This document shows, piece after piece, positions 4,846-46,752 of a stretch of DNA of 64,000 nucleotides; within the stretch, counting starts at the first letter, position 1; each line of letters opens with the position of its first letter. The stretch lies in contig DATBJG010000415.1 of the NCBI GenBank assembly GCA_036556585.1, positions 131 to 64,130 on the forward strand, read 5' to 3'. The translations under genes and the position numbers were made by a program. The notes beneath the pieces are model-generated. The model did not search any database. It was not told where the DNA came from and worked only from the letters and a program-made list of their open reading frames with translations. The stretch comes from Vicinamibacterales bacterium. GTDB taxonomy: Bacteria; Acidobacteriota; Vicinamibacteria; Vicinamibacterales; JAMQPK01.

Positions 4846-4883
4846 GTTGGGCTGTCCTCGACAGGCGCACCAGACGCCTGTCT

Positions 4884-7068: not shown

Positions 7069-7090
7069 ACATTCACCCGCGGACAATCCC

Positions 7091-7441: not shown

Positions 7442-7450
7442 GGCACGGTC

Positions 7451-9384: not shown

Positions 9385-9839
9385 GCACATCACTCGAGAC
9401 CAAAGTGGTCGACTTCGTGCGCCAGGTTGTGGGAGCCATGGGCCTGCCGCTCGAGCCTCACGTCGAACGCTCGGCGGATGGCGTTCGCATCAATCTGGAG
9501 GGCGAAGCCGGCAGCGCACTACTCGTTCGTCGGGCCGAGCCACTTCAGGCTCTGCAACACCTGGTCGACACGATCTTCCGCGACGAGATGGAAAAGAGTG
9601 GCCGCGTTCTTCTGGACTGCATGGGATTTCGACGCGACAAGGATCTGGAGCTCCGGCAGATGGCAAAGTTCCTGGTCGACAAGGCGAAGACGACAGGAGT
9701 CGAGCAGCAGATCGGTCCGCTCAATGCTTACGAACGGCGGATTGTGCATCTCGTGGTGAACGAAGATCCCGCCGTTGCGTCCGAGAGCATCGGGGATGCG
9801 GCGCAGAAGACGGTGATTATCTCGAAACGAAAGATCTGA
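9381..9839 (+). CDS. jag: Jag/KhpB-type RNA-binding protein (KH plus R3H domains)
   Basis: 152-aa ORF with an R3H-like region (LNAYERRIVHLVVNEDPAVASESIG). ATGA overlap with the yidC stop. Conserved yidC-jag-mnmE synteny. Confidence 0.8.
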   Translation: MSTSLETKVVDFVRQVVGAMGLPLEPHVERSADGVRINLEGEAGSALLVRRAEPLQALQHLVDTIFRDEMEKSGRVLLDCMGFRRDKDLELRQMAKFLVDKAKTTGVEQQIGPLNAYERRIVHLVVNEDPAVASESIGDAAQKTVIISKRKI

Positions 9840-9869
9840 AAGTCGGCCTCCGCCCAGCAGCCGACTGCG

Positions 9870-11285
9870 ATGTTCTCCACCTCAGACACCATCGTTGCTA
9901 TTGCAACGCCGTCAGGACGAGGCGCGATGGGGGTCGTGCGCGTGAGCGGGCCCGCCGCCTGCCACGTCGCCGGGGCGATTCTGACGACCCGGCGAGCACT
10001 GACGCCGAGGCGCGCCACGTTCACTCGTGTGCGAAGAGCCTCCGACGACAGTTCGAACGGAAACCGAGACTCAAACGGCCGGGCCCTTTCTGATCAGGTG
10101 GTCGCGACCTACTTCCAGCACCCGGCCTCCTACACCGGCGAAGACGTCGTCGAGATCAGCGCGCATGGCAGCCCCGTGGTCCTGCACCAGATTCTCAAAG
10201 CCGCAATGGATGCCGGAGCCCGGCTGGCCGAACCCGGCGAGTTCACCTTGAGAGCGTTTCTCAACGGGAGGCTCGATCTCGTCCAGGCCGAGGCCGTCGC
10301 CGATCTGATTGAGGCCGTCACGCCCCTCCAGGCGCGCGTGGCATTCGATCAGCTCGAAGGCACGCTGACAGCCGAAATCGAGGCGATCGACACGCTGCTG
10401 TTCGACATGGTGGCGCGATTCGAGGCTTCGATTGATTTTCCGGAAGAGGGGTATCACTTCGTCGACCCCGAACGAACGATCGACGAGCTCGATGGGCTAC
10501 AAGGACGCATCGTGCGACTCCTTTCCGGTGCCCGCCGGGGACGCCTGATTCGCGAGGGAGCGCATGTCGTGATTGCAGGTCGATCCAACGTCGGCAAATC
10601 GAGTCTTTTCAATGCGCTGCTCGGGACGGGACGGGCGATTGTGACAGCGGTGCCGGGGACCACGCGTGATTTCGTGACCGAGGTGACCGATCTCCAAGGC
10701 GTGCGCGTTGCGCTGGTGGACACGGCTGGCGAGCGGGGAACGGTCGACCCGATTGAAGATGTGGAACGGGAAGGCATCGAGCGAGCCCGTCGGGCACGCG
10801 CGATCGCGCAACTGGTTCTCGTCGTGCTCGATCGTTCCCAAGAGCTGACTGACGTAGACAGACACCTGCTCGACGAAACGTCCGACATGCAACGGGTCAT
10901 CGTCGTGAACAAGATCGATCTGCCCGAGGCCTGGTGCTCCGATTCGCTGCAGGAGGTCAGTGAGTCGGTGGTTCCGATCTCCGTTCGAAGTGGGGAAGGG
11001 CTCGACCGGCTCAAGGCGAACGTAGTGGAGGCTCTTGGCGGCGGCGACGTCGAGCGCGACACAGCGGCTGTCACCAACATCCGTCACATCGAACTCCTGG
11101 AGCGCGCGCAGCAGGCGCTCAACCAGGCGAAGCAGGCCATCACCGACAGAGGGGGCCGGCTTTCAGAGGAATTCGTACTGGCCGACCTCCAAGCTGCGCG
11201 ACATGCGTTCGAGGAAATCACGGGCAAGAGGACGGCCGACGATGTGTTGGCGCACATCTTCGGGCGCTTTTGTATCGGGAAATAG
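9870..11285 (+). CDS. mnmE: tRNA modification GTPase MnmE
   Basis: 471-aa ORF with G1 [15 protein letters not shown]3 DTAG, G4 NKIDL and the C-terminal FCIGK motif. Confidence 0.93.
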
Positions 11286-11314
11286 AGCTCGGAATTCGGC
11301 TCTCGGATTTCAGA

Positions 11315-13180
11315 ATGAACCACTACGACGTCATAGTCGTTGGCGCGGGTCACGCAGGCTGTGAGGCGGCCTGGGCCGCGGCTCAGGTGGGCTGTCGCAC
11401 GGCAATCTGCACGTTGACGACCGACACCGTCGCTCACATGCCGTGCAATCCCGCCATTGGCGGCACGGCCAAAGGGCATCTCGTCGCAGAGATCGATGCG
11501 CTTGGGGGCTTGATGGGGCTGGCGATCGATGCGACGGGGATCCAGTTCAAACTGCTGAACCGCAGTCGAGGTCCGGCTGTGTGGTCACCTCGAGCCCAGG
11601 CCGACAAAAAAGCGTACGGCCGTTGGATGCGCGCCGTGCTCGAACGACACCCGAATATCTCCTGGATGCTCGGGAAGGTTGGTCGACTGTTGATCGAGCA
11701 TGGGCGCGTTGCCGGAATTGCACTCGAGGACGGGGATCGATATTCGTGCTCCTCGCTCGTCATTACAACCGGCACATTTCTGAATGGCCTGGTCCACGTT
11801 GGGCCGGAGCAGCGACCAGCCGGCCGCGGCGACGAACCGCCGTCGCGCGAACTTGCTGAATCGTTGAAATCGGTTGGCTTCGAGTGGGCACGCCTGAAGA
11901 CCGGCACGCCGCCTCGCCTTCATCGGCGGAGCATTGATTTTGCCAAGGGCGTGACACGCGGTCTGTTCGCGGAGGAGCCGGGAGACAATCCTCCGGTTCC
12001 GTTCTCGTTTCTGACGGGCCATCTCGAAGTGGCGCAGGTTCCGTGTTATCTCACGCACACGACCGAGCAGGTGCGTGACATTGTGTTACGGAACGTGAAC
12101 CGTTCGCCGCTCTTCAACGGGCAGATCCGCGGCATCGGACCGCGCTACTGTCCGTCGCTCGAAGACAAGATTGTCCGGTTTCCGGCTCGCGAGCGTCATC
12201 AAATCTACCTCGAGCCGGAAGGGCGGGATGCGGATGAGATTTACGTGAACGGCTTTTCCATGAGCCTTCCGCGCGACGTGCAGGCCGAGCTGGTTCGCGC
12301 GATTCCGGGGCTCGAGGATGCCGAGATCGTCCGCCATGCGTATGCCGTGGAGTACGACTTCATTCAGCCGACGGAGCTGAAAGCGACGCTTGAAACGAAG
12401 CGTGTGGCGGGGTTGTATCTGGCGGGTCAGATCAACGGGACGTCGGGGTACGAAGAAGCAGGCGGCCAGGGCTTGATTGCCGGGGTGAACGCCGGGCTTC
12501 GAGCGGTTGGGCGGAAGGCGCTGGTTCTAGGTCGTCAGGAATCGTACATAGGAGTTATGGTAGATGACCTAATAACGCGTGGGTGCCTGGAGCCGTACCG
12601 GATGTTCACGTCGCGCGCAGAGCATCGGCTGCTTCTTCGGTGTGATAACGCGGACCTTCGGCTGACGCGAGTTGGCAGGGAAGTCGGACTCGTGGACGAG
12701 GGCAGGTGGGATGCCTTCAACGCTCGCTTGGAGCGGTTCAATCGGAATCTCCAAACTCTGCGAAGTGCCACGGTTCGAACTCCGGAAGGGGAACGCGTCA
12801 AAGCGGATCACCTGCTGCGGCAGCAGAGCAGCAGGCTTGACCAGTTGTGCCAGGCGGGACTGGTGGGGCTCGAGACATCGACAGGCACGGCGCGTATCGA
12901 TCTGGCGAGTGTCGAAACCGCCATCAAGTACGAAGGGTATCTCCGACGCCAGGAGCGCGAGGTCAGTCGCTCGAAGAAGGAGGAGGCGAAGCTCATCCCG
13001 GAGTCATTTCAATTCGAGTCGGTCCCGGGTCTGTCGAACGAAGTCGTGCACAGACTGAGTCAGGTTCGGCCCGCGACTCTTGGACAGGCGTTAAGAATTC
13101 CAGGTATCACGCCGGCCGCCGTGGCGGTCATGTCGGCCTACCTCAGCAGGCGTCCCGTGGACTCACCGAAAGCAGTATGA
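11315..13180 (+). CDS. mnmG: tRNA uridine 5-carboxymethylaminomethyl modification enzyme MnmG (GidA)
   Basis: The track ORF starts at 11270, inside mnmE. The conserved N-terminus [19 protein letters not shown] starts at the ATG at 11315. FAD-binding motif present. The product is about 620 aa. Confidence 0.93.
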
Positions 13181-22029: not shown

Positions 22030-23391
22030 ATGAATTCCATTGTCGTCTCCGACGTCACCAAGGTCTACCGGCGCTACGCACGCCGGAAGCAGTTTGCCAC
22101 GCTCAAGAGCGCACTGCTCGATGGCAGCCTGATCAGCGACCTCAAGCCCGACGAGACGTTTCACGCCCTGCGGGGGGTGTCGTTTGCCGTGCCGACGGGC
22201 GCCACCTTTGGCATCATCGGTCGAAACGGGTCTGGCAAGAGCACGATGTTGAAACTCGTAGCGGGTATCACCAAACCCACGAGCGGCAGTGTCGATGTTC
22301 GCGGACGCATTTCGGCGCTCATCGAACTGGGTGCCGGATTCCACCCCGAGATTTCCGGCCGCGAGAATGTCTTCATCAACGGCATCATGCTCGGCTTGTC
22401 GAAGCGGGAGATTGCCAGGCGCTTCGACGAAATCGTCGAGTTTGCCGAGCTGCGCGACTTCATTGAAGCTCCGGTCAAAACGTATTCGTCGGGCATGTAC
22501 ATGCGCCTCGGTTTTGCTGTCGCCATTCACGTCGATCCCGACGTGCTCCTGGTCGACGAAGTGCTGGCCGTCGGCGACGAGGCGTTTACGCACAAATGCC
22601 TCGACAAGTTTGGAGAATTTCGACGACGGGGCAAGACGATCCTGCTGGTGACCCACTCGCTGAACCTGGTGGAGCGATTTTGCGACGAAGCGCTGTGGCT
22701 CGACGCCGGGCGCACGAGAGCCCTCGGGGATCCGCTGCGTGTGGTGGGCGCGTATCTCACCGACGTCGAGCACTCGGAGGAACAAACATTAGCGGCGGCG
22801 GATGCAAGAGCGCGAGCGCACGCGCTGGAAGTGCCCTTGCCAATCGTCGAGGGCGAAAATGGTGCGGAGTTGCCAGTGGGGGCCGCCGACGGCAACGCGC
22901 TGCCGGACGACCCGGTCCCCCAGGACATGTTTCGGGCACGGGAGGGACGCTGGGGATCTCGCGAAGTTCAGATACTTGAAGTTGCGCTGAGGGATCAGCA
23001 CGGTCAGGTCAGTCACGTCTTCCAGTCAGGGGACCCGCTTTCCGTTCATGTCAAGGTGCTCGCGGTCGAACCGGTCAGTGACTTTGCTTTCGGGATTGGC
23101 CTGTTCAATCCAGAGGGTGTCTGCTGCTACGGGACGAATACTCATCTCGAAGAGCTCGAATCAGCCTCGCTCGAGGGTGAGGCAGAGGTCGTCTTCCAGG
23201 TTGCCTCGCTGGATTTGGTCGAGGGGACCTACAAACTCGACGTGGCCGTTCACAAGCGAGACGGGTATCCGTACGACTATCATCGACTGCTCTATACCTT
23301 CCGCGTGAAATCCCGAACGCATGACGTCGGAATCTATCGTCCACCTCACCAGTGGACCTTCTCATCCAACGTGAAGTTCGGTACGAAATGA
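22030..23391 (+). CDS. wzt: Polysaccharide/O-antigen ABC exporter ATP-binding protein (Wzt/TagH-like) with C-terminal beta-rich extension, copy 1
   Basis: 453 aa with Walker A GRNGSGKST, signature YSSGMYMRLGFA and Walker B LLVDEVLAVGD. An extra C-terminal domain of about 170 aa has the length and character of Wzt carbohydrate-binding domains. Confidence 0.88.
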   Translation: MNSIVVSDVTKVYRRYARRKQFATLKSALLDGSLISDLKPDETFHALRGVSFAVPTGATFGIIGRNGSGKSTMLKLVAGITKPTSGSVDVRGRISALIELGAGFHPEISGRENVFINGIMLGLSKREIARRFDEIVEFAELRDFIEAPVKTYSSGMYMRLGFAVAIHVDPDVLLVDEVLAVGDEAFTHKCLDKFGEFRRRGKTILLVTHSLNLVERFCDEALWLDAGRTRALGDPLRVVGAYLTDVEHSEEQTLAAADARARAHALEVPLPIVEGENGAELPVGAADGNALPDDPVPQDMFRAREGRWGSREVQILEVALRDQHGQVSHVFQSGDPLSVHVKVLAVEPVSDFAFGIGLFNPEGVCCYGTNTHLEELESASLEGEAEVVFQVASLDLVEGTYKLDVAVHKRDGYPYDYHRLLYTFRVKSRTHDVGIYRPPHQWTFSSNVKFGTK

Positions 23392-27530: not shown

Positions 27531-28583
27531 ATGCGCAAGTGTGTTGCAGTATTTGCCGTTGTTTTCGCCCTCGCCACCGCCGGCCCCTCTGGAGAGATCC
27601 TCGAGCAGATTCTGGTCAAGGTCAACGGCGAGATTCTGACCAAAACCGACCTCGAACAGCGCCAGCTACGCGCGCTGCGAGACCGGGGCGGGCTCGATCC
27701 CTCGACGGCCACGGCGTCCGATCTGAAGCGCGCGGTGGCGGAGATCACGCCGCTCGTGCTGGTCGGTGCAGTCGACGAGATGCTGCTCGTCCAGCGCGGC
27801 CGCGAGCTTGGTGGATCCCTGAGCGACGAACAATTCAAGGGCATCCTCGAGAACCTGCGAAAAGACAACAACCTGGAGAACGACGCGCAGTTCCAGGCTG
27901 CGCTCAAACAGGAAGGGTTGACGATCAACGATCTGCGTCGCAACATCGAACGGTCCGCGATCATCAACCGCGTGCAACAGGTCGAGATCATGTCGAAGAT
28001 CAGCGTGACCGAAGAGGAGTCACGTGCCTACTTCGACAGCCGCCCGAACGATTTCAAGACTCAACCCGGCATCACGTTGCGCGAGGTGCTGGTGAGCGTT
28101 GGCTTGGAGCAAGGGGGCTTGAACGTCGGCAAGGACGAGGAGGCGAAGGCCAAGGCCGAAGAATTGCGGGCTCGGGCCGTCAAGGGCGAGAGCTTCGAGA
28201 AGCTGGCGGCCGAACATTCGGAGGCAGCTTCGAAAGCTAACGGCGGGCTGATTGGACCCATCAGCCGCGAGGAACTGGCCCCGGCGTTTCAGCAGCTCAT
28301 CGATCCGCTGAAGCCCGGGCAGATCACGTCCGTCGTGCGTTCCCGCCAGGGCTGGCAGTTCTTCAAGCTCGAGATGAGGACCGAGTCCGATCGCCTGACG
28401 TACGAACAGGCAAAGGGTCAGATTCAGGATCGTATTGCCAACGAGAAGCGCGAAGGCGAGTTGAGAAAGTACCTGGAGAGCCTCCGTCAGCAGGCGATTA
28501 TCGAGTGGAAGAACGAGGAGCTCAAGAAGGCGTACGAACAAGGGCTCGAGCAACGAACGAAAGAACCCCCGGCCCGCGGATAA
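27531..28583 (+). CDS. Periplasmic SurA-like chaperone / PpiC-type peptidyl-prolyl isomerase
   Basis: 350 aa with a signal peptide (MRKCVAVFAVVFALATA), a SurA N-terminal-like region (ILVKVNGEILTKTDLEQ) and a parvulin-like segment (GGLIGPISREELAPAFQQLIDPLKPGQITSVVRSRQGWQFFKL). Confidence 0.75.
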   Translation: MRKCVAVFAVVFALATAGPSGEILEQILVKVNGEILTKTDLEQRQLRALRDRGGLDPSTATASDLKRAVAEITPLVLVGAVDEMLLVQRGRELGGSLSDEQFKGILENLRKDNNLENDAQFQAALKQEGLTINDLRRNIERSAIINRVQQVEIMSKISVTEEESRAYFDSRPNDFKTQPGITLREVLVSVGLEQGGLNVGKDEEAKAKAEELRARAVKGESFEKLAAEHSEAASKANGGLIGPISREELAPAFQQLIDPLKPGQITSVVRSRQGWQFFKLEMRTESDRLTYEQAKGQIQDRIANEKREGELRKYLESLRQQAIIEWKNEELKKAYEQGLEQRTKEPPARG

Positions 28584-28585
28584 CC

Positions 28586-29134
28586 GTGTCGGACCGAGAA
28601 CAAACGGATTCATCAATCGTTGCCGGCGCCGGCCTGACGGATGCCGATGTTCGGTGGTTTGCGATCTGGACCAGATCGCGGCACGAGCAGGTCGTTCGCC
28701 AGCAGCTCGAGAAAAAGGGTTTCGAATCGTTCCTGCCCACGATTCCCCGCTGGAGCCGCTGGAAAGATCGCAAGAAAAAGATCGATTGGCCGCTTTTTCC
28801 GGGCTATTGCTTCGCCCGGTTCGTCCCCGCCTCCACCCTGGCCATTCTCAAATGCACGGGGGTCGTCAATATTGTGTCGTTCGAGGGGAAACCTGCGCCT
28901 ATTCCGGACCACGAGATTGATGGTATTCGCCGCCTGGTGACGAGCGATCTGCAGTACGACCCATGTCCTCTCATCCATGAAGGCATGATGGTCGAAGTCT
29001 CCCACGGCGCCTTGAAAGGCGTGATTGGCCGGCTCGTGCGCAAGGGCGCACACGCCCGTCTCGTACTCTCGGTGGACCTCATCGGCCAGGCGGTGTCGGT
29101 CGAAGTGGACGCCGCGGACGTCAAGCCATACTAA
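28586..29134 (+). CDS. Specialised NusG paralogue (RfaH/UpxY-like transcription antiterminator)
   Basis: NGN-like region WFAIWTRSRHEQVVRQQLEKKGFESFLP...PLFPGYCFARF followed by a KOW-like region GMMVEVSHGALKGVIGRLV. The GTG start at 28586 is chosen because the track ORF start (28505) lies inside the upstream gene. About 182 aa and far shorter than housekeeping-operon context would suggest; no secE/rplK neighbours. Confidence 0.7.
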   Translation: MSDREQTDSSIVAGAGLTDADVRWFAIWTRSRHEQVVRQQLEKKGFESFLPTIPRWSRWKDRKKKIDWPLFPGYCFARFVPASTLAILKCTGVVNIVSFEGKPAPIPDHEIDGIRRLVTSDLQYDPCPLIHEGMMVEVSHGALKGVIGRLVRKGAHARLVLSVDLIGQAVSVEVDAADVKPY

Positions 29135-30222: not shown

Positions 30223-30455
30223 GATCTGAACTTCCAAGTTTTTCCTTCGATTCAATACCGCTGCGCGTTAGTGCCGGAAATGTGTATCATTTGCACACCG
30301 AAAAGTATTCTGATGGATACACCGATAATTCCCTTAGAAACGCGAACTCCGTCCGCACAGCTGCGGTCGCCGTTTGTCCTGCAGCGGCAACCCGGGTTCG
30401 AGAGTGGGCCTTCGCAGCTCTTCTTGTGACTCACAGAGCGGAGCCTCGCTTAGAT

Positions 30456-31076
30456 ATGGTCATTAGACCAAATAGATCCTCCGCTTTGCTTGTTGGTCTG
30501 CTTCTGGTCAGTCTGACAAGGTGCTCACAGCAGGCGAATCAGAGTGACTTGCAACCGAAGTACGACGCTAAGACCGGGAAACTCGGTCAATTGACTTACG
30601 ACTCAGACTCCAACGGTAAACCTGATGCTGTCAGTTATATGGATGGATCTGAGATCGCGAGGATTGAACTCGACAAGGACGAAGATGGTCTGGTGGATCG
30701 CTGGGAGTACTACGGAACCAATCGACAGCTTGTCAAAGTCGGCATTTCTAGGTCAAATAACGGAAAAGTCGATGCTTGGATTTTTGAAGGAGCCAAGGGT
30801 TCCGTCGACCGCATTGAGATCTCGACGCGCCAGGATGGCAAGGTCAACCGGACCGAGTTCTATGAAAAGGGCGTCCTGACCCGAACCGAGGAAGATACCG
30901 ACGCCAACGGAGTTGTGGACAAGTGGGAGACCTATCGAAACGGCGTCTTGAGCAGCGCAGCATTTGACCTGAACGGCAGCGGCCGTCCTACGCGCCGATT
31001 GACGTATCAGTCGGACGGCAGTCTTCAAGGGGTGGAGACGGACGCCGCTGATCAACCGGCGGTATCACGCCCATGA
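30456..31076 (+). CDS. Putative lipoprotein built from about six DxDxDG-type (Ca-binding-loop-like) repeats
   Basis: The ATG at 30456 gives MVIRPNRSSALLVGLLLVSLTRC followed by 24-aa units such as DKDEDGLVDRWEYY, SRSNNGKVDAWIFE and DTDANGVVDKWETY. The track ORF 29616..31076 is an upstream read-through artefact. The stop overlaps the next gene's start (ATGA). Confidence 0.75.
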   Translation: MVIRPNRSSALLVGLLLVSLTRCSQQANQSDLQPKYDAKTGKLGQLTYDSDSNGKPDAVSYMDGSEIARIELDKDEDGLVDRWEYYGTNRQLVKVGISRSNNGKVDAWIFEGAKGSVDRIEISTRQDGKVNRTEFYEKGVLTRTEEDTDANGVVDKWETYRNGVLSSAAFDLNGSGRPTRRLTYQSDGSLQGVETDAADQPAVSRP

Positions 31077-32062
31077 GCAGCAGCGAGTTCCATACGCAAG
31101 CCTCATCGTCCCGCATGCAAGCGCTCACGCAGCAGGTGGCGAAAGCCGCAGGCGGCCGTGACCATGTCCTGATTACCGGCGAGCCAGGCACGGGCAGGGA
31201 AGCCGTGGCGCGCGAGATTCATCGCCGGTCGTCCGCAACGGCGGGATTCGTCAAGGCGGCAAGCACCCATGCGGCGCTGGAGACGCTGGAGCGCGATCTG
31301 TTTGGCTTCCAGTTGGGTCGCACCGCGGGCGAGGAGCGTCGAAATCTCGAACGGATTGCGAGAGGCGGCCAGTTGCTTGATGCAATTGGCGGAACGCTCT
31401 TCCTCGAACATCTGACCGAAATCCCCGCGCGGATTCAGGCACGTCTGGTGAGGCTGTTCCGAGATCGCGAGGCGATGGTCGTGCAAGACCGCTCCTCGGT
31501 TGGGTTTGACGTGCGCGCGATTGCGGCTGTCGATGCGGCGTACGATCAGGCCGTCGAAGAGGGTCGGGTCAGGGGTGACCTCCATCGGGTGATTTCCGCA
31601 ATTCGCATTGACGTGCCTCCTTTGAGAGAGCGGCGCGAAGATATTCCCGGCCTCGCGGCACATTTTCTGACCGTGATTGGGAGCAGGTCTTCTGTTCCTC
31701 CAAAGACACTCAGCGAACCCGCGCTGCAGCTGCTGACCGCGCTGCCGTGGCCAGGCAACGTGAGAGAACTCGAGCGTCTCTTGACCGGCCTTGCACAGCG
31801 CGTCAAAACCGACGTCATCCGACTGGAGGACGTCCTGTCCAGCATTCAGCTCGATGGCCGCTCCATCCCATCCGCCGCCGGTGGGACGCTGCGTGAGGCA
31901 CGCGCACGGTTCGAGCGAGAGTACATCGCGGCCGCGCTCGATCAACACAGTGGTCGTATTCCGGACGCCGCGCGAATGCTCGGTATTCAGCGCACCAACC
32001 TCTACCGAAAGTTGAAACGCCTCAAGATTCCCATCGACCGACGACGCTCCATCACCCCATAG
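31073..32062 (+). CDS. Sigma54-interaction-domain (AAA+) / Fis-HTH transcriptional regulator with degenerate catalytic motifs and no sensory domain
   Basis: 329 aa. EBP hallmarks are retained: PPLRERREDIPGLAAHF, WPGNVRELERL and the C-terminal HTH AARMLGIQRTNLYRKLKRL. Walker A reads GEPGTGRE, Walker B reads GGTLFLEHL, and the GAFTGA position reads FQLGRTAGE. Confidence 0.8.
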   Translation: MSSSEFHTQASSSRMQALTQQVAKAAGGRDHVLITGEPGTGREAVAREIHRRSSATAGFVKAASTHAALETLERDLFGFQLGRTAGEERRNLERIARGGQLLDAIGGTLFLEHLTEIPARIQARLVRLFRDREAMVVQDRSSVGFDVRAIAAVDAAYDQAVEEGRVRGDLHRVISAIRIDVPPLRERREDIPGLAAHFLTVIGSRSSVPPKTLSEPALQLLTALPWPGNVRELERLLTGLAQRVKTDVIRLEDVLSSIQLDGRSIPSAAGGTLREARARFEREYIAAALDQHSGRIPDAARMLGIQRTNLYRKLKRLKIPIDRRRSITP

Positions 32063-32067: not shown

Positions 32068-33066
32068 ATGCCTGACTCAGGCATAGCCGTTGTCTGCGGA
32101 GCTGGCGGCTTCATTGGAGGGCACCTCGTCGGGCACCTCCTGGAGCATCGTCGGTTACGCGTGCGCGCTGTTGACGTCAAGCCGGGTCATCAGTGGCACC
32201 AACGCCACCGCGCTGCCGAAAATCTGGAGCTCGACCTCTCTGAGCTGGGGTCATGCCGTCGTGCCCTGGTCGGAGCTGCTGAGGTCTACAACCTTGCCGC
32301 TGACATGGGGGGCATGGGGTTCATCGAGCGCAACAAGGCGTTGTGCATGCTGAATGTCCTCATTAACACCCATTTGCTCCTGGCAGCGCGCGACGAGCGT
32401 GTGCAGCGGTTCTTCTATGCATCTTCGGCGTGTGTCTACAACGCTTCCCGACAGGCCTCGCCGGAAGTTACACCGCTTCGCGAAGAAGACGCGTACCCCG
32501 CAATGCCGGAAGACGGGTATGGCTGGGAAAAGTTGTTCGGCGAGCGCATGTGCCGTCACTTCGACGAGGACTTTGGTCTGAACACGCGCGTGGCGCGCTA
32601 CCACAACGTGTACGGTCCGTTCGGCGCGTACGACGGCGGCCGCGAAAAGGCTCCTGCGGCAATCTGCCGCAAGGTTATCGAGGCCAAGAGGTCTGGCCGC
32701 CATGAGATTGAAATCTGGGGAACGGGCAACCAGACCCGAAGTTTCACTTACATTGCCGACTGTCTCGAGGGTACCGCCAGGCTGACCGAAAGCACTGTCT
32801 GCGAACCGGTGAACGTGGGGAGTTCCGAGCGGGTGACGATCAACCAGCTTGTCGACATGGTGGAAACCATCGCTGGTATACGGTTGACTCGCCGATACAA
32901 CCTTTCCGCCCCGAATGGTGTCAACGGTCGCAACAGCGACAACACCAAAGTTCGCGCCTTGCTCGGCTGGGAGCCCACGACTCCTCTCGTTTCCGGAATG
33001 GAGGCGACGTATCGGTGGATCCACGACGCGATGCATGTTCCGACCAGAGGTGCCGTGTGCGCCTGA
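32068..33066 (+). CDS. NAD-dependent sugar-nucleotide epimerase closely resembling GDP-mannose 3,5-epimerase
   Basis: 332 aa with a Rossmann motif (GAGGFIGGHL). There are long identities to the plant/bacterial GME pattern as I remember it: NLAADMGGMGFI, RFFYASSACVY, GGREKAPAAICRK, QTRSFTYI, EPVNVGS and NGRNSDN. Confidence 0.72.
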   Translation: MPDSGIAVVCGAGGFIGGHLVGHLLEHRRLRVRAVDVKPGHQWHQRHRAAENLELDLSELGSCRRALVGAAEVYNLAADMGGMGFIERNKALCMLNVLINTHLLLAARDERVQRFFYASSACVYNASRQASPEVTPLREEDAYPAMPEDGYGWEKLFGERMCRHFDEDFGLNTRVARYHNVYGPFGAYDGGREKAPAAICRKVIEAKRSGRHEIEIWGTGNQTRSFTYIADCLEGTARLTESTVCEPVNVGSSERVTINQLVDMVETIAGIRLTRRYNLSAPNGVNGRNSDNTKVRALLGWEPTTPLVSGMEATYRWIHDAMHVPTRGAVCA

Positions 33067-34325
33067 TCGCGGCCGACCGATCGAAGCATTGCATGGTGGC
33101 AGCATGCCTGGCCGTTTTCGTGTCGGCCAGTCAGGCGGCTGCCCAGTCACCACCGGCAGGGGAGCCTCCATCGCCGTTCCAGTTGAAAAGCGGTGCGTTC
33201 ACCGTGACGCCGGCGGTTCGACTCGTGGATGTAGGGGTCGAGACGAACGTCTTCAGTACTGGTGAACGCGCCTCTGATTTCACCGCGACCGTCGAGCCAC
33301 AACTCGAAGCACGAATTCAGCGGACACGTTTCGACGTTCGTGCCACAGGTCGCGCTGGCCTCGTGTACTACCAGGAGTTCGCGAGTGAACGTGCGTTCAA
33401 TCCAGGGGTCCGTCTGCAGGCCGAGCTCCGCAGGAGCTCACGGCTCGCGTTCTATGGCGATGCCGACGTCGGTTATACCAACGGGCGATCAGGCCCAGAG
33501 GTCGATGCGCGGGTCCGCAGTTTCGTCCGGCTGTTCAAGGCTGGAACCCGAATCGGCGGTCACAAGCTGCAGCTTGACGTGAACGGATCGTACACGGACG
33601 TCGAGGTGGACGAATCCGAGGAATTCATGCATGTCCAACTGGAGGACACGCTCAACCGTACTGTGCAACTGGGGTCGGTCAAGCTCCTTCATCACTTGAC
33701 GCCGTACACCGGCTTGACGTTCACGGCCGAAGGACTGCAGCAACGGTTCCCCCGGGCACCCGAACGAGACATTGATTCGGTCAGCGGCACGGTCGGTGTC
33801 GACCTCAGTCCTCAGGCGCTCATTGGCGGGACTGCCGCGATCGGCTATCGCTCGGCGAACCCGTTGCACGACATCACGCCCGAGTTCGCGGGCCTCATTT
33901 ACCGTGGCGGGATCAGCAGTACGGTGCGGGATCGACTCTCCCTGTCGGTCGGCGCCGAGCGCGATATCGATCCTTCGTACCGGTACGACGCGCCGTACTA
34001 CGAGTACGACCTGTACGAGGCCGGCGCGCAACAGGTGCTCTGGCGTCGGCTCGATGTGGGAATCAGCGGGTCTCGCACGAAGATCAAGTATCACGCTTTT
34101 ACAAGCGGTGTGTTCGAGGGTGACACACGCGAAACATTGGACAACCTGACGGTGAGCGTCGGACTGCGCATGACTCGGCACAACCGCGTGTCCGGCTACA
34201 TCTCACAGTGGCGACGTGTGAACGGCGCCAATCCCTACAAAGACATTCAGGTCGGCATGATGGTGACGGTCGGCCGCGTGTCGGTCAGCGAACGTGGCGT
34301 TTTTCTGAACGGTCCCACGAGATGA
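33057..34325 (+). CDS. Secreted protein, candidate outer-membrane beta-barrel associated with polysaccharide export
   Basis: Signal peptide (..MVAACLAVFVSASQAAAQ) followed by about 400 aa of alternating-polarity, Gly/Tyr/Arg-rich segments typical of a barrel. The start is either GTG 33057 or ATG 33093. The stop overlaps the wza start (ATGA). The function is inferred from context. Confidence 0.5.
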   Translation: MRLIAADRSKHCMVAACLAVFVSASQAAAQSPPAGEPPSPFQLKSGAFTVTPAVRLVDVGVETNVFSTGERASDFTATVEPQLEARIQRTRFDVRATGRAGLVYYQEFASERAFNPGVRLQAELRRSSRLAFYGDADVGYTNGRSGPEVDARVRSFVRLFKAGTRIGGHKLQLDVNGSYTDVEVDESEEFMHVQLEDTLNRTVQLGSVKLLHHLTPYTGLTFTAEGLQQRFPRAPERDIDSVSGTVGVDLSPQALIGGTAAIGYRSANPLHDITPEFAGLIYRGGISSTVRDRLSLSVGAERDIDPSYRYDAPYYEYDLYEAGAQQVLWRRLDVGISGSRTKIKYHAFTSGVFEGDTRETLDNLTVSVGLRMTRHNRVSGYISQWRRVNGANPYKDIQVGMMVTVGRVSVSERGVFLNGPTR

Positions 34326-35221
34326 CAGAGGAATCTGGAATGGGAAAGCGCTCTCGAGGGTGTCGCGGGGCGACGGTCAAGCTCCTCGGATCTCTTGCAG
34401 CAGCCATCTGGTTGTCGGCGGCTGCGGTCACGCTGGCGCAGTCGCCCGCTGCGCCGGCTCCTGGTCGTGCCGATTACGTGATTGGCGTGCAGGACATTCT
34501 CAACATCACGGTCTGGGAGCATGAAGACCTCGACGGAAAGTTCACGGTTCAGCCCGACGGAACGATAACGCTGCCGCTCATAGGACGGCTGGCGGCGGCG
34601 GGCCTCACGATTCGTGAGTTTGAAACTGACCTGGTTCGGGCACTGTCCGAGGGGTTCATTCGACAACCACGTGTTGCCATCACGTTCGATCAGATTCGAG
34701 GCCGGCGCGTCTTCATTTTTGGCAATGTGGCAGCGCCCGGCACGTACCCGCTGACCGAAGGACAGACGTTGATCGAAGCGCTGGCCAAGGCTGGCTATGG
34801 TGTCGCCTCGGAGGCGGTCGTCGTACGACCGAAGCATCCGTCAGGTCCGAAATTGCCGGAGCATGCCAGCGACGGAGAGGTGCTGCGAATCAACTTGCGT
34901 GAGCTGGAAAAAGACGTGCAGCACGGATCGCTCGGACGCAACGTGATTCTGCACGATGGCGACACGGTGTTCGTGCCGCGCGACGACCCCACACGAATCT
35001 TCGTGACCGGCCACGTGCGTAACCCCGGAGCGTACTCGATTGCTGAGGGTACCACCGTGCTGCAAGTGCTTGCCCTGGCCGGCGGGGCCACAGAGGAAGC
35101 CGCGATCAACCGTCTCAAAGTCCTGCGAATTGTCGAAGGCAAACAGCAGTCGATCAAAGTCAAGCTGTCCGACCCAATCCGCGCGGGCGACACCCTTGTG
35201 ATTCCCGAAAGGTTCTTCTGA
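34322..35221 (+). CDS. wza: Polysaccharide export (OPX/Wza family) protein, short form
   Basis: About 299 aa with a signal peptide, a Poly_export motif region (YVIGVQDILNITVWEHEDLDGKFTVQPDGTITLPLIGRLAAAGLT) and two SLBB-like segments. It ends ...GDTLVIPERFF with no further C-terminal segment. An alternative ATG lies at 34340. Confidence 0.85.
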   Translation: MTEESGMGKRSRGCRGATVKLLGSLAAAIWLSAAAVTLAQSPAAPAPGRADYVIGVQDILNITVWEHEDLDGKFTVQPDGTITLPLIGRLAAAGLTIREFETDLVRALSEGFIRQPRVAITFDQIRGRRVFIFGNVAAPGTYPLTEGQTLIEALAKAGYGVASEAVVVRPKHPSGPKLPEHASDGEVLRINLRELEKDVQHGSLGRNVILHDGDTVFVPRDDPTRIFVTGHVRNPGAYSIAEGTTVLQVLALAGGATEEAAINRLKVLRIVEGKQQSIKVKLSDPIRAGDTLVIPERFF

Positions 35222-37548
35222 TGTCCGATTCCCTGGTTCAGGGTCCTGACGAGAGGCCTCGGCCGACGGTGGTGCATCCACACCCCCACTCACGCGCGAC
35301 CCCGTGGACGCCCGCACTGGTCGATCTGCTCGGCGGACACCCGGGAGAGTCCCGGTCGTTGTTCGATTGGCGGGAATGGATCCGGACATTACGACGACGC
35401 TGCTGGCCGGCCCTGACGGTATTTGTCGTCGTACTCATCGGAGCGTTCTTTCACGCCCTGACCCGCGTCCCCGTCTACCAAGCGCGAGTACGTGTCCTGA
35501 TTGAACCGAATCGGGCCAACATGACGGGTTTGACCGATCCACTCGAAGCGGACTACGCGGAGGCAGACTTTCTGACCCAGTTCATGATTCTCCAGAGTCG
35601 ATCGCTTGCACGACGAACCATGGAGACGCTGGGAGCCTGGGACCAAACAGGCGAGACGCCGCCGCCAGTGCCGGGGTCCTGGAGCGCTTTCGTTCAGACA
35701 CTCGAGGATGGGGCCCGCCGAACGTTTGCTTGGACACGCGAACGCGCCGGTTTTGCTTCTCCGACCAGCCCTGCCGAGCCGCCGGCCCCCGACGAAAGTG
35801 TGGTCGACACGGCAAAGATCAACAGCTTTTTGACCGGGCTCCGTGTGATTGCGATTCCGGGCAGCAGGCTTGTCGACGTGTTCTACGAATCCCGGGATCC
35901 TCATGTGGCGTCGACAACGGCCAACACCATCGTTCAGCAATTCATCCAGCAGAACCTCGAATTGCGGTTTCTCGCCTCCAAGGAGGCCACCGAGTGGTTG
36001 AACGAGCGGCTTGGTGAACAACGCAAGGCGCTCGATGCATCAGTAGAGGCGCTGCGCGCTTACCAGCGGAAAAACGGGATTGTGCCGGTGGGTGAGCAGG
36101 CCAGCGTGACGGTTCAGAAACTCACCGATTTGACGACGGCCTATACGAAGGCAAAGACAGACCGCATCGAAAAGGAGACGCTGTTTAACCAGCTCGAGAT
36201 GTCGGCGAGAGATCGTAGCAGCCTCGATGCGTTTCCCGTCATTGCCAACAATCCGATCGTCCAGGAGCTCAAGTCTGAGCTCATCTCTCTACAGCGCCAG
36301 GAAGCGCAGCAGTCCGAAAAGCTTGGTGACCGTCATCCCACCCTCATCAAGACACGCGAGGGTGTCCGCAACGCCGAAGGGAGGCTGCGCGTCGAGATGA
36401 CCAAGGCTGCCGAATCGGTCCGCGCCGAATATCAGTCAGCCAGGGCGGCCGAATCGAGCCTCGGCCGGGCGCTCGAGTCACAACGTAAGGAGATGCTCTC
36501 GCTCAACCGGAGCGACGTCGAGCTCGCGGTCTTGCAGCGTGACATGGAGAGCAACCGGCAGATTTACGACAGCCTGCTTCAGCGTGTGAACGAGTTTGGG
36601 GTTACTCGCGAACAGCGGATCAGCAATCTGAGGATTGTCGACCGCGCCGAAGTGCCGCAGGCTCCGCTGGCCACGGGTATCCGCACGGACCTGAGGCTCG
36701 GCCTGCTCGGCGGCCTTCTGCTCGCAATCGGGATGGCATTTCTCCTGGAGCGTCTGGACAATCGCGTCAAGCTTCCAGAACAAATCGGAAGCGAACTGGG
36801 ACTCACGTTTCTCGGCATGGTCCCGCTTGTCGGTGAGGACGAGCTGACGCGCCCCCTGCTCGTCGATCGACCTGTCCCGGCGGGATTTGGGGAAGCTATT
36901 CGTGCATTCCGTACGAATGTTCGCCTGTCGATTGCTTCCGATGGCTTACGGTCGGTCGTGGTCACCAGTGCGTGCGCCGGCGACGGCAAGACCCTCGTCG
37001 CCAGCAACCTCGCCTTAACGCTTGCGATGGCCGAGCAACGTGTTCTCCTCATCGACGCCGATCTGCGGCGGCCGAGCCTGCATACCACCTTCGACCTCAA
37101 GAAGGAACCCGGGTTGACCAACTTCCTCATCGGAGATGGTCAGGCTGCCAGCATCATCCGACGAACCCGCGTACCCGGATTGCATATCCTGACGTCGGGG
37201 ACCCTCCCGCCAAATCCCTCGGAGCTCCTCGACTCGAGACGATTCAAGAAGTTCCTGTTGCAGCTCGGCAAGTACTACGACTGGGTGGTGCTCGATTCAC
37301 CGCCCGTCATGCCGGTCACAGACGCCATTGTCCTGGCCGACGTCGCGTCGGGTGTGATTTTTGTGACCGCGGCAGAGACGACCCCGCTACCGGCGGCGCG
37401 TAGCGCCATCGAGCAGTTGCGACGCGCGCCAGCTCCAGTACTGGGCGCGGTGTTGAACCGGGCAGACCTGAAGCGCCGCAGCTACTACTACACCAAGTAC
37501 TACAAGCGCGACTATGAGGGGTATTACGAGCGTGCCACCTCAGCCTGA
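35221..37548 (+). CDS. wzc: Polysaccharide co-polymerase / tyrosine autokinase (Wzc/GumC-type PCP-2a)
   Basis: 775 aa with two TM segments flanking a long coiled periplasmic region. The kinase Walker A is SACAGDGKT, Walker A' is LLIDADLRRP and Walker B is VVLDSPPV. The C-terminal tail RRSYYYTKYYKRDYEGYYERATSA carries 8 Tyr. Confidence 0.88.
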   Translation: MSDSLVQGPDERPRPTVVHPHPHSRATPWTPALVDLLGGHPGESRSLFDWREWIRTLRRRCWPALTVFVVVLIGAFFHALTRVPVYQARVRVLIEPNRANMTGLTDPLEADYAEADFLTQFMILQSRSLARRTMETLGAWDQTGETPPPVPGSWSAFVQTLEDGARRTFAWTRERAGFASPTSPAEPPAPDESVVDTAKINSFLTGLRVIAIPGSRLVDVFYESRDPHVASTTANTIVQQFIQQNLELRFLASKEATEWLNERLGEQRKALDASVEALRAYQRKNGIVPVGEQASVTVQKLTDLTTAYTKAKTDRIEKETLFNQLEMSARDRSSLDAFPVIANNPIVQELKSELISLQRQEAQQSEKLGDRHPTLIKTREGVRNAEGRLRVEMTKAAESVRAEYQSARAAESSLGRALESQRKEMLSLNRSDVELAVLQRDMESNRQIYDSLLQRVNEFGVTREQRISNLRIVDRAEVPQAPLATGIRTDLRLGLLGGLLLAIGMAFLLERLDNRVKLPEQIGSELGLTFLGMVPLVGEDELTRPLLVDRPVPAGFGEAIRAFRTNVRLSIASDGLRSVVVTSACAGDGKTLVASNLALTLAMAEQRVLLIDADLRRPSLHTTFDLKKEPGLTNFLIGDGQAASIIRRTRVPGLHILTSGTLPPNPSELLDSRRFKKFLLQLGKYYDWVVLDSPPVMPVTDAIVLADVASGVIFVTAAETTPLPAARSAIEQLRRAPAPVLGAVLNRADLKRRSYYYTKYYKRDYEGYYERATSA

Positions 37549-44590: not shown

Positions 44591-45433
44591 GTGGCTGTCG
44601 CAACAGACCGGGACGTCCTCTATATAGAAATCGCGCCCACGGGTCACCGGGGACAGTACTGGCGCGATCTCTGGCACTATCGCGAGCTCTTCTACTTCCT
44701 CGCCTGGCGCGACATTCTGGTCCGGTACAAGCAGACCGTGGCGGGCGTGGCCTGGGCGTGGATCCGACCAGCGGCCACAATGGTCGTGGCGACGACGATC
44801 TTTGGACACGTCGCCAGGCTGCCATCTGGTGACGCCCCGTATCCGATCATGGTTTTCGCGGGGCTGCTCCCGTGGCACCTGTTTGCAAACGCCCTTTCGG
44901 ATTCGGGCGGAAGCCTGATTGGCAATGCCAACCTGATTGCCAAGGTGTACTTCCCGCGCCTGGTGATCCCGGCGAGCAGCATCATTGTTGGACTCGTCGA
45001 CTTCCTGATTGCGGGCGTCCTGTTCCTCGCGGTAACCCTTTGGTACGGCGTGGCACTGACCTGGCGAATCGTGATGCTGCCGTGGTTCGTACTGCTCGTG
45101 CTTGCCGCAGCACTTGGTGCCGGCTTGTGGCTCAGCGCGGTGACCGTCAGATATCGCGACTTTCGATTCGTGGTGCCATTCCTCGTGCAGTTTGGATTCT
45201 TCCTGACGCCCGTGGCGTACAACAGCAGTGCGGTTCCTTTGGATTGGCGGCTATGGCACGCCGCGAATCCCCTCGTCGGCATTGTGGATGGATTCAGATG
45301 GGCGTTGCTTGGCGGTGCGCAGAGTCTCTACTTCCCGTCTCAAGTTTCCGCCGTCGTCGGCGTGGCCGCCATGCTCTTAAGCGGAATCCTGTACTTCCGC
45401 CGCACCGAGCGCTCGTTTGCAGACGTGATTTGA
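44591..45433 (+). CDS. wzm: ABC-2 type polysaccharide/O-antigen export permease (Wzm-like), copy 2
   Basis: 280 aa with a GTG start, YRELFYFLAWRDILVRYKQTVAGVAWAWIRP and six TM segments. Confidence 0.85.
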   Translation: MAVATDRDVLYIEIAPTGHRGQYWRDLWHYRELFYFLAWRDILVRYKQTVAGVAWAWIRPAATMVVATTIFGHVARLPSGDAPYPIMVFAGLLPWHLFANALSDSGGSLIGNANLIAKVYFPRLVIPASSIIVGLVDFLIAGVLFLAVTLWYGVALTWRIVMLPWFVLLVLAAALGAGLWLSAVTVRYRDFRFVVPFLVQFGFFLTPVAYNSSAVPLDWRLWHAANPLVGIVDGFRWALLGGAQSLYFPSQVSAVVGVAAMLLSGILYFRRTERSFADVI

Positions 45434-46752
45434 TGGATCCCGCGATTTCGATTACCGCGCTCTCCAAGCGCTACAGGATTAACGGGTCGAACCCAGGTGA
45501 CGGTCTTCGACACGCAATCAATGAACTTGCTCTGGCGCCCTGGCGCCAGGTGCGACGGCTCGCGGGCCGTCCGTCTCGGTCAATTCCTCCGACATCGACC
45601 CCGCAGGAGTTCTGGGCGCTTCGAGACGTGTCACTTGATGTCGACGAGGGGAAGGTTGTTGGCATTATTGGTCGCAACGGTGCCGGAAAGACCACGCTTC
45701 TGAAGCTCGTCAGTCGGATCACCGCACCAACATCCGGATTCATCAAGCTTCGTGGGAGAGTTGCGAGCCTGCTGGAGGTAGGAACCGGCTTTCATCCGGA
45801 GCTGACCGGGCGCGAGAACGTTTTTCTGAACGGTGCAATTCTCGGAATGAAGAAGGTCGAGATCCAACGCAAGTTCGACGAGATCGTGTCGTTCGCCGAA
45901 ATCGGCGCATTTCTGGACACCCCGGTGAAGCGATACTCGACAGGGATGTACACGCGCCTGGCGTTTTCGATCGCCGCGCACCTCGAATCGGAGATTCTGC
46001 TCGTTGACGAAGTGCTGGCCGTCGGCGACGTGGCTTTTCAGCGAAAGTGTCTCGGAAAAATGAACAGCGTAGCGAGACATGAGGGGCGGACGGTTCTCTT
46101 CGTCAGCCACAACATGGCAGCCGTTACGCAACTCTGCGACCGCGTCGTCCACCTGGAACACGGCCAGATTGTGCGCCAGGGTGTAACGAGCACCGTGGTC
46201 GGCGACTACTTTGCAGCGACGAGCGCGCATGGTGCGTCGCGTCACCTTGCCGGGGTTGACGAAGCGGGAAGAAAGCAGCCGTTGTGGTTCTGTAACGTTG
46301 CCGTCCTTGACGACGAAGGCCGGGAGAATGCCGCTCTGCGATTCGACGCACCGTTTCGAGTTCGGCTGGAGTACGAGGTACCAGAGCCCACGAGTTGGAT
46401 CGAAATGTCGGTTCGACTGCTCACCGCCGATGGGCGTGCGGTTCTGACGACGATGCAATCCGATCTGGCGCCGGAGGTGGTCAGGCAGGTGCGACACGGC
46501 CGGTATGAGATCACAATTCCGTTTCCTGCCCGTTTCCTGATGCCCGGCGACTATGTCATCAACATTGCATCGCACGAGCCAGGTGGCGGGGCACTCTTCG
46601 AGCTGCACGAAAGCGTGATTCGCTTCACGATTGAGGACACGGGGTCCAGCTTTGCCAGGTACGGGAATCATCAAGCCAACGGCCTGGTTGTGATGGACCT
46701 GCCGTGGGACGAACGGCCGTTGAGCAATCACTCGTCCATCGCCATTTCGTAA
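45433..46752 (+). CDS. wzt: Polysaccharide/O-antigen ABC exporter ATP-binding protein (Wzt-like) with C-terminal extension, copy 2
   Basis: The ATG at 45433 (TGATG overlap with wzm) gives MDPAISITALSKRY. Walker A is GRNGAGKTT, the signature is YSTGMYTRLAFS and Walker B is LLVDEVLAVGD. A C-terminal beta-rich domain of about 180 aa follows. The track ORF start at 44872 is an artefactual extension. Confidence 0.88.
   Translation: MDPAISITALSKRYRINGSNPGDGLRHAINELALAPWRQVRRLAGRPSRSIPPTSTPQEFWALRDVSLDVDEGKVVGIIGRNGAGKTTLLKLVSRITAPTSGFIKLRGRVASLLEVGTGFHPELTGRENVFLNGAILGMKKVEIQRKFDEIVSFAEIGAFLDTPVKRYSTGMYTRLAFSIAAHLESEILLVDEVLAVGDVAFQRKCLGKMNSVARHEGRTVLFVSHNMAAVTQLCDRVVHLEHGQIVRQGVTSTVVGDYFAATSAHGASRHLAGVDEAGRKQPLWFCNVAVLDDEGRENAALRFDAPFRVRLEYEVPEPTSWIEMSVRLLTADGRAVLTTMQSDLAPEVVRQVRHGRYEITIPFPARFLMPGDYVINIASHEPGGGALFELHESVIRFTIEDTGSSFARYGNHQANGLVVMDLPWDERPLSNHSSIAIS

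Follow-up and report, generated by a model that had tools for sequence, protein, structure and literature searches.

The 329-amino acid (aa) protein encoded at positions 31073..32062 (+ strand) of the 64,000-nucleotide (nt) stretch of contig DATBJG010000415.1 from a Vicinamibacterales bacterium (hereinafter, the window) is a degenerate relative of the enhancer-binding proteins (EBP), denoted here EBPL, as judged from the list of open reading frames (ORF), Pfam matches, alignments to PDB entries and an AlphaFold2 (AF2) model. This protein is probably a non-hydrolysing, sigma-54-independent, locus-specific transcription factor of a Wza/Wzc-type exopolysaccharide (EPS) cluster. The initial annotation had already suggested that the protein may be an ATPase-dead, ligand-gated DNA-binding regulator of the locus, an interpretation that is supported in part. 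The description as an ATPase-dead, sigma-54-independent DNA-binding regulator of the locus appears well supported by the combination of an EBP scaffold that lacks the sigma-54 contact loop and the catalytic residues with a conserved helix-turn-helix (HTH) domain, conserved synteny and a conserved candidate operator.

A Pfam search identifies the AAA+ core (Sigma54_activat, PF00158; residues 11-179, nt 31103-31609) with a score of 98.7 bits against a cut-off of 20.2, the AAA_lid_14 domain (residues 185-259, nt 31625-31849; 67.4 bits), and a Fis-type HTH (HTH_8; residues 277-317, nt 31901-32023; 51.6 bits), all on the + strand, in agreement with the scaffold recognised in the initial annotation. 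Because canonical EBPs from the same searches score 236-242 bits with PF00158 and possess a clear receiver (PF00072, 87-95 bits), the window regulator is a strongly diverged member of the EBP superfamily. The AF2 model (pLDDT 87.3, with low confidence at residues 81-90) has an NtrX/ZraR-type fold; its best Foldseek match is NtrX from Brucella (5m7p, E 2.8e-23), followed by ZraR, NtrC1, FleQ and VpsR. The best NCBIfam model is also NtrX (NF051870), with 192.6 bits against a cut-off of 600 and only model positions 142-451 covered, and the PEP-CTERM-box response regulator PrsR (TIGR02915) scores 172.3 bits, below its cut-off of 502.6. The AAA+ core is preceded by about 10-14 residues only, and neither the ORF nor the Pfam search reveals a receiver (REC) or other signal-input domain (ACT/PAS) in the 329 aa. 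The possibility of a hidden N-terminal domain, missed through a mis-called start or a frameshift, was considered and ruled out: no possible start codon lies between the preceding in-frame stop and position 31073, and the frame upstream belongs to a conserved lipoprotein gene. The ATG of the regulator overlaps the TGA of that gene (ATGA at 31073-31076), which confirms the overlap from which translational coupling had been proposed.

The register of the motifs was fixed by phmmer alignments to EBPs with solved structures, namely, ZraR (1ojl), NifA (9qq6) and NtrX (5m7n). The alignments to ZraR and NifA put every motif where the initial annotation had placed it and bear out the four substitutions listed there. 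The Walker A motif (residues 36-43, nt 31178..31201) reads GEPGTGRE, compared with GDSGTGKE in ZraR, with the invariant Lys replaced by Arg42 (codon AGG at 31196-31198). Walker B (residues 106-114, nt 31388..31414) is GGTLFLEHL, with EH in place of the DE of GGTLFLDEI in ZraR, and sensor I (residues 150-156, nt 31520..31540) is IAAVDAA, aligned with IAATHRD of ZraR, with Asp153 at the Asn position. Within the L1 region, FGFQLGRTAGEERRNLERIARGGQLL (residues 77-102, nt 31301..31378; all these motifs are on the + strand), which was delineated from the ZraR and family alignments, the segment FGFQLGRTAGEERRNLERIARGG is aligned with FGHEKGAFTGADKR------REG of ZraR, so that GRTAGE stands in place of GAFTGA and six residues are inserted after it. 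The PPLRERREDIP and WPGNVRELE motifs are kept, and the sensor II Arg is present within NVRELE. At the Arg-finger positions (the equivalents of R162 and R168 of PspF), the first residue is R167, whereas Val occupies the second position and is immediately preceded by an Arg. Since the catalytic motifs and GAFTGA are lost, the regulator is predicted to be unable to remodel the sigma-54 holoenzyme.

The degeneracy goes far beyond chance, and the same losses are seen throughout the family. Among the 120 closest homologues, which come from metagenomes and metagenome-assembled genomes (MAGs) of Acidobacteria and are 47-92% identical, the Walker A Lys position is occupied by Arg in 111 of the 117 proteins that cover it, by His in 3, Tyr in 2 and Cys in 1, and by Lys in none (0/117). 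The DE pair of Walker B is present in 0/119 homologues, which instead have QN, EH, EN, AN, EQ and other combinations, and a GAFTGA-like loop is found in 0/120. The sensor I Asn position is acidic in 117 of the 120 (Asp in 75, Glu in 42), a state that co-occurs with the Walker A Arg, and the sensor II Arg is present in only 16/120, all from the clade of the window regulator. Other parts of the protein are conserved in a family-specific manner: the motif ERRxLERIxRxGxL stands in place of L1, motifs in the lid are conserved as well, and the P-loop residues G36, E37, G39 and G41 together with Arg47 downstream of Walker A are invariant in the family alignment. The HTH is the most conserved part, with invariant L303, G304, Q306, R307, N309, L310, Y311 and K313.

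An exhaustive profile search against 1.84 billion cluster representatives, in which the 150 best clusters at 50% identity were classified, gives the same picture. The Walker A Arg is present in 84 clusters, none of which (0/84) has DE or GAFTGA; about 29 have other non-Lys residues; and of the 27 with the Walker A Lys, 19 are fully canonical, with Lys never combined with the other losses. In some family members, the P-loop is lost altogether (GLDA and GFDA types; also GTDY/GTDC). The Walker A Arg is thus the conserved state of a large, old family rather than a recent lesion, and given its frequency in the homologues (111/117) and the clusters (84/150), the observation of the initial annotation that AGG is one base away from AAG has no evolutionary significance.

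That every functional motif is affected and that a single substitution separates AGG from AAG could be taken to indicate a decaying or recently inactivated sigma-54 activator, a pseudogene in progress. However, the reading frame is intact, and the ratio of nonsynonymous to synonymous substitution rates (dN/dS) is 0.069 for the window gene and its closest genomic orthologue (from the related locus L001, 80% amino-acid identity) and 0.14 for another close pair. Furthermore, each of the 120 closest homologues carries the same substitutions, as do the majority of the 150 best cluster representatives, and the new family-specific motifs are conserved. The regulator is conserved under purifying selection, and the dN/dS values of 0.07-0.14 together with substitutions common to the whole family exclude a pseudogene for all practical purposes, so that the probability of decay is negligible.

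From the loss of Walker A, Walker B and sensor I, and from the poor conservation of the Arg fingers and sensor II, we infer that the AAA+ module of the family is a pseudo-ATPase. A refinement of this reading, proposed in the initial annotation and conceivable yet rather doubtful, is a ligand-gated regulator in which a nucleotide-type ligand, such as cyclic di-GMP (c-di-GMP), (p)ppGpp or unhydrolysed ATP, would occupy the remodelled P-loop. Apart from the four invariant P-loop residues and the nearly invariant Arg42, this variant is compatible with the equivalence of the invariant Arg47 to R185 of FleQ, which contacts ATP and c-di-GMP (PMC10723142), with the use of c-di-GMP by EPS regulators of the same fold (PMC6158489), and with the precedent of NtrC from Rhodobacter capsulatus, where ATP binding is needed and hydrolysis is not (10.1101/2023.06.06.543975). 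On the other side, R144, the linker Arg of FleQ, has no counterpart because the REC-AAA+ linker is absent, and the complete loss of the P-loop in some members argues against an essential role of phosphate binding in the family. Moreover, one idea is that the conserved acidic residue of sensor I pairs with Arg42, in which case the two may form an internal salt bridge in place of the nucleotide gamma-phosphate and could fill the empty pocket.

The retained scaffold also brings up the possibility that the protein is a non-catalytic subunit or anti-activator, namely, a dead subunit in a mixed ring with a canonical EBP at a sigma-54-dependent promoter. The AAA+ fold and the lid are intact in the AF2 model and by Foldseek comparison, the two Arg-finger positions are kept in 88/120 and 71/120 homologues, and tandem paralogues exist in the related loci L044 and L055. 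However, no canonical EBP gene is syntenic in the loci, the tandem paralogue itself is degenerate (GEPGTGH), and it is the regulator's own HTH that is conserved best. No sigma-54 promoter was found in the locus either: a search of the window for TGGCAC-N5-TTGCW with up to 3 mismatches gives 243 matches versus 253 expected, and the intergenic region 30223-30455 contains no correctly oriented -24/-12 match of the sigma-54 type. A mixed-ring role is therefore quite improbable. Altogether, the lack of GAFTGA, of any catalytic residue and of a -24/-12 promoter, along with the sigma-70-type architecture in related loci, argues against sigma-54 dependence.

The family comes in two forms, a short one of about 315-350 aa, to which the window regulator belongs (72 of the 120 homologues), and a long one of about 450-490 aa (48 of the 120). 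A Pfam search detects no match, PF00072 included, in the extra ~135 N-terminal residues of the long forms. However, a profile of this region compared with PDB shows similarity to a response regulator (2qxy, 1e-7) and to the NtrC1 receiver (E 3.7e-7), with weaker matches to DctD, NtrX, LuxO and HupR. The phospho-acceptor Asp is invariant in these proteins, whereas the conserved Thr/Ser and Lys positions of the receiver are replaced. Given these matches, the invariant Asp and the missing Thr/Ser and Lys, the ancestor of the family was of the NtrC/NtrX type and had a REC-AAA+-HTH architecture in which the receiver was degenerate; the clade of the window regulator has lost this domain. Thus, the absence of a sensor domain reported in the initial annotation holds for the window protein and not for the family, which ancestrally has a degenerate N-terminal receiver. 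The N-terminal region of the long-form homologues P0049-P0120 (loci L010-L079) can be described as a probable pseudo-receiver. In two Vicinamibacterales loci, a second degenerate regulator gene directly follows the first one (~8970-9990 in L044 and ~8980-10000 in L055); the tandem copy's Walker A motif, GEPGTGH, resembles that of homologue P0038.

The genomic context of the family was analysed by a scan with one genome per species, which yielded 415 relatives; the best 79 loci were examined in detail. All 79 belong to Acidobacteriota, mostly to the class Vicinamibacteria or the order Vicinamibacterales, a taxonomic range that refers to these 79 loci only, and in 79/79, synteny ties the regulator to the polysaccharide locus. 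The gene order in nearly all of them is lipoprotein, regulator, (a variable gene), BBP2-type porin, Wza and Wzc; the end of the lipoprotein gene and the beginning of the regulator gene share 4 nt in at least 21 loci. In about one third of the loci, the lipoprotein gene is preceded by the genes for Mfd, SurA, an UpxY-like antiterminator and DusB, exactly as in the window.

The intergenic region 30223-30455, upstream of the lipoprotein gene, had been proposed as the regulatory region and indeed contains a conserved candidate operator, which can be narrowed to 30284..30320. This element, denoted P1, was recognised from the alignment of related loci and from motif counts and has the form GTATC-N16-GTATT-N6-GATAC, that is, a half-site followed by a 16-bp palindrome. 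Its outer arms form a perfect inverted repeat, GTGTATC (30282-30288) and GATACAC (30316-30322), and are the only two copies of GTGTATC within the 64 kb; when up to one mismatch is allowed, the window contains no GTATY-N6-GATAC palindrome other than the right part of P1. A homologous GTATC...GAYAC element is found at the same place in 49 related loci. An alignment of 54 distinct regions upstream of the lipoprotein genes in related loci reveals a conserved promoter-like block, TTGACA-N16-TAnAnt. In 46 of the 54 sequences, a GTATC pentamer precedes the -35 box by 29-31 nt, GTAT(T) is often found 9 nt upstream of this box, and the box itself contains the reverse complement, GA(C/T)AC. The equivalent in the window, placed by homology, is a putative sigma-70-type promoter (30314..30340, + strand) that consists of TGGATA (30314-30319, the -35-equivalent) and TAGAAA (30335-30340, the -10-equivalent).

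In 33 loci that encode long forms, the same pentamers also occur directly after the regulator stop codon. The layout of this second element, P2 (TGTATC-N5-cGATACa-N14-cGATACA), is the mirror image of that of P1; the element begins 2 nt after the stop in more than 20 loci, and in 21 of the 33, a TTGAC -35 box follows after exactly 19 nt. Some short-form loci have a rearranged version, GATAC-N20-GATAC-N19-TTGAC. The pattern GTATC-N24-31-GAYAC has 137 matches in 1.15 Mb of loci versus 15.2 +/- 3.6 in shuffled sequences, and the 16-bp palindrome with up to one mismatch has 68 versus 15.8 +/- 4.3; P2 accounts for 31 of these 68 matches and P1 for 20, and the remaining 17, at other positions, correspond to the chance level. 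A further match in the window, GTATC-N29-GACAC at 34088-34126, located within the porin gene about 220-250 nt before the Wza start, was rejected as a chance occurrence, being present on a single strand, in coding sequence and without a homologous counterpart. Separately, a subset of the long-form loci (L018, L019, L024, L026, L046, L048, L049, L056 and L064) share a conserved sequence, GCCGAGTCTGCTCCCCCAGAGC, which lies shortly downstream of the -10 region of P2, some 90-120 nt beyond the regulator stop, and might represent an RNA element of the leader.

Among DNA-binding proteins, only the regulator shows constant synteny with the GTATC/GATAC sites, and it is predicted to bind them. A 16-bp palindrome whose half-sites are one helical turn apart, together with an extra half-site two turns off, is the arrangement expected, by analogy with NtrC sites, for dimers of an oligomerising Fis-type HTH protein. 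An alternative, unlikely but a serious one, is that GTATC/GATAC is the site of a different factor, such as a global regulator, or an element of promoter architecture common to the class, in which case the EBP homologue would act at other sites or would not bind DNA sequence-specifically at this locus. Binding of the protein to the site is indeed a prediction, and the right arm of P1 falls on the -35 hexamer, a sequence whose conservation would be expected in any event. However, the element occupies two fixed positions flanking the lipoprotein-regulator pair and, elsewhere within +/- 8 kb, is present at the chance level. The GAYAC core is kept even where the -35 box is not TTGACA (the window, L001, L049 and L078), and in the window, it perfectly matches the left arm. 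The 16-bp palindrome with the 11-bp spacing of half-sites also fits a Fis-type HTH dimer, by analogy with the NtrC sites.

Several observations weigh against the view of EBPL as a non-hydrolysing, locus-specific regulator that acts through this operator. The conservation of the P-loop glycines and of the Arg means that nucleotide binding may persist. A generic scan of the 28.4-35.4 kb region for sigma-70 promoters and terminators finds nothing in the intergenic region, and the promoter hexamers of the window are diverged (TGGATA, with a 15-nt spacer). P2, the strongest cis signal in the related loci, is absent from the window and from L001. Finally, the recognition helix (QRTNLYRK) is almost invariant and the operator differs only at the level of clades, so that covariation between helix and operator has no power, and the operator could belong to another regulator.

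Under the regulatory model that we nevertheless favour, EBPL would bind the GTATC/GATAC operators through its nearly invariant Fis-type HTH, with the 16-bp palindrome GTATY-N6-GATAC and a third half-site two helical turns away together making up the operator, and would control a sigma-70-type promoter from there; both the use of sigma-70 and the sign of the regulation are inferred here. The single operator of the window, at 30284-30320, overlaps the -35 element of the promoter that would drive the lipoprotein, regulator and EPS genes, and such an arrangement implies autoregulation and control of the operon at one and the same site. The P1 palindrome is centred on the -35 element, a position suitable for class-II-type activation or for repression, whereas the P2 sites of the related loci, at about -58 and -82, would be in a class-I-like position. 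The dead AAA+ domain probably serves as an oligomerisation and allosteric module. A bolder version of this model, which we put forward as speculation and regard as improbable in full, is that the whole family, which comprises over 100 clusters at the 50% identity level, has turned the EBP motor into a new kind of signalling module: rather than hydrolysing ATP, the P-loop Arg and the acidic sensor I would accommodate a second messenger that carries phosphate (c-di-GMP, (p)ppGpp or similar), the ERRxLERI loop would contact the sigma-70 holoenzyme or another partner, and the regulator would be the EPS master switch of soil Vicinamibacteria.

The gene immediately upstream of the regulator (30456..31076, + strand), identified from the ORF list and an alignment of homologues, encodes an exported lipoprotein of 206 aa with six DxDxDG-like repeats and only weak library matches (EF-hand, Lsa25.6). 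Because the signal peptide and the lipobox Cys are conserved across the homologues, this protein is predicted to be a co-expressed exported cargo and not a cytoplasmic partner of the regulator; for the same reason, a role as a cytoplasmic anti-activator, by analogy with PspA, FleN or HrpV, was ruled out. In the closest genomic relative, L001, the lipoprotein gene is lost, with a remnant (MVIRPKTAAS...) at 7641-7805, and the operator (7532) and the regulator are intact.

Downstream, the regulator is followed without a gap by a gene for an NAD-dependent epimerase/dehydratase (32068-33066) and then by genes for a BBP2-type beta-barrel porin (~33093-34325), a Wza-like exporter (~34340-35221) and a Wzc-like tyrosine autokinase/co-polymerase (35221-37548), all on the + strand and assigned by Pfam and NCBIfam searches. 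The cluster runs on this strand up to ~62 kb, and the more than 25 kb past Wzc encode an initiating sugar transferase, GT4 and GT2 glycosyltransferases, methyltransferases, a Wzt-like ATPase of the ATP-binding cassette (ABC) type, an acyltransferase and a Wzy_C protein. Two Wzt-type ABC ATPases with Wzt_C carbohydrate-binding domains are encoded in the window, one upstream of mfd and outside the cluster (22030-23391) and the other one inside (44872-46752); the presence of the latter in a cluster that contains Wza, Wzc and Wzy indicates that the locus mixes export components of the ABC and Wzy types.

Between P1 and the lipoprotein start, related loci (e.g., L012, L022 and L079) share a 5'-leader motif, CTGTAAGTGAC-N-GGGCG[AG]AGC, which lies on the coding strand in every case, some 100 nt downstream from the P1 promoter; comparison of the related loci identifies a diverged copy in the window, TTGTGACTCACAGAGCGGAGC (30424..30444, + strand). 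The GGGCGGAGC part of the motif is reminiscent of the ops element of RfaH. A gene of the UpxY family of NusG/RfaH-like antiterminators (28505..29134, + strand; NF033644, 114 bits against a cut-off of 100) lies two genes upstream in the window, and in six loci, the UpxY gene is directly upstream of the lipoprotein gene. Our guess is that the leader motif is a loading site for an UpxY/RfaH-like antiterminator, and the combination of the UpxY paralogue with this motif suggests a second layer of control, by antitermination. An Rfam scan of the 28-36 kb region, with E-values up to 5, matched no RNA family, the leader included.

Farther upstream, the - strand genes gyrB (1120-3639), dnaN (3730-4845) and dnaA (5108-6676) are followed by yidC, mnmE and mnmG on the + strand (window positions 1120-13180 for the whole group). 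This arrangement shows that the window begins beside the chromosomal replication origin, which is probably located in the gap at ~6.7-7.7 kb. Six of the related loci (L013, L024, L031, L046, L049 and L061) come from public MAGs titled Bifidobacterium or Bifidobacteriaceae, yet show the full Vicinamibacteria-type synteny, so these labels are almost certainly wrong.

Vicinamibacteria (Acidobacteria subdivision 6) rank with the most abundant bacteria in soil, and to our knowledge, almost nothing has been learned of their gene regulation. The conserved regulator that heads their main Wza/Wzc EPS locus, along with the candidate operator and promoter architecture, offers a directly testable handle on the control of matrix production. 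The database names assigned to these proteins, "sigma-54-dependent Fis family regulator" and "NtrC/NtrX/GlnG response regulator", are misleading: the data say that the family members are neither sigma-54-dependent nor, in the clade of the window regulator, response regulators. No new principle is involved here; rather, this is an abundant, mis-annotated and experimentally tractable family of regulators, with a predicted operator, in a soil lineage that is ecologically dominant and poorly understood.

EBP homologues that lack GAFTGA and act at sigma-70 promoters are an established category, which includes TyrR, PhhR, HupR, HsfA, NtrX, VpsR, DhaR, and the NtrC proteins of Rhodobacter and Caulobacter (PMC6158489; 10.1101/2023.06.06.543975; PMC3162934). 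The window regulator agrees with these atypical EBPs in being an EBP scaffold without a functional GAFTGA loop, and it may likewise act at a sigma-70-type promoter: in related loci, the candidate operator abuts or overlaps the conserved TTGACA-N16-TAnAnt block, of which the window has a diverged copy. The closest relative by sequence and structure is NtrX from Brucella abortus (5m7n/5m7o/5m7p), which likewise combines an NtrC-type AAA+ domain with a Fis-type HTH and lacks GAFTGA; NtrX has been reported to act as a repressor at a non-sigma-54 promoter (PMC6158489). However, NtrX has a receiver, keeps both Walker A (GPSGAGKE) and Walker B (LYLDEV) intact, and has been crystallised with ATP and ADP, whereas the window regulator has no receiver, with Arg in place of the Walker A Lys and EH in place of the Walker B DE. 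In addition, NtrX is said to be alphaproteobacterial (10.1101/2023.06.06.543975), whereas the family described here is acidobacterial.

The closest functional analogue is VpsR from Vibrio cholerae (7v2b), an EPS master regulator of the EBP family that is also matched to the window model by Foldseek. VpsR lacks GAFTGA, has a non-consensus Walker B (ND), works with the sigma-70 RNA polymerase and binds a site beside the -35 box (PMC6158489). Unlike the window regulator, in which all catalytic motifs are lost and no receiver is present, VpsR retains the receiver and binds c-di-GMP, and the operator sequences are different. TyrR/PhhR, HupR, DhaR, and the NtrC proteins of R. capsulatus and Caulobacter are EBP scaffolds re-used as sigma-70-dependent activators or repressors, as proposed here for EBPL. 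In contrast to the window regulator, they retain sensory domains and, in most cases, the ability to bind or hydrolyse nucleotides; both the Walker A Lys and the Walker B Asp are required in Caulobacter NtrC (10.1101/2023.06.06.543975). A conserved Walker A Arg is reported for none of these proteins. The c-di-GMP site of FleQ is a cluster of Arg and Glu residues that includes R144 in the linker, R185 after Walker A, and E330 and R334 in the lid (PMC10723142). The R185 equivalent in the window regulator, R47, is generic to EBPs, and R144 has none, the linker being absent.

With respect to the domain architecture, the window regulator resembles PspF from Escherichia coli (aligned over residues 18-255), which also consists of the AAA+ and HTH domains only, without a cis regulatory domain. 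PspF is a fully active sigma-54 activator with GAFTGA that is regulated in trans by PspA, whereas no cytoplasmic partner is evident for the window regulator. Literature searches found no paper on this family of regulators. It differs from the known atypical EBPs in that all catalytic determinants are lost and the Walker A Arg is fixed, the L1 loop is new, the input domain is missing in the clade of the window regulator, and the family belongs to a different phylum and has an operator of its own. As a natural, strongly conserved and fully degenerate EBP motor with a fixed Walker A Arg, it extends to the extreme the series represented by NtrX, VpsR and TyrR.

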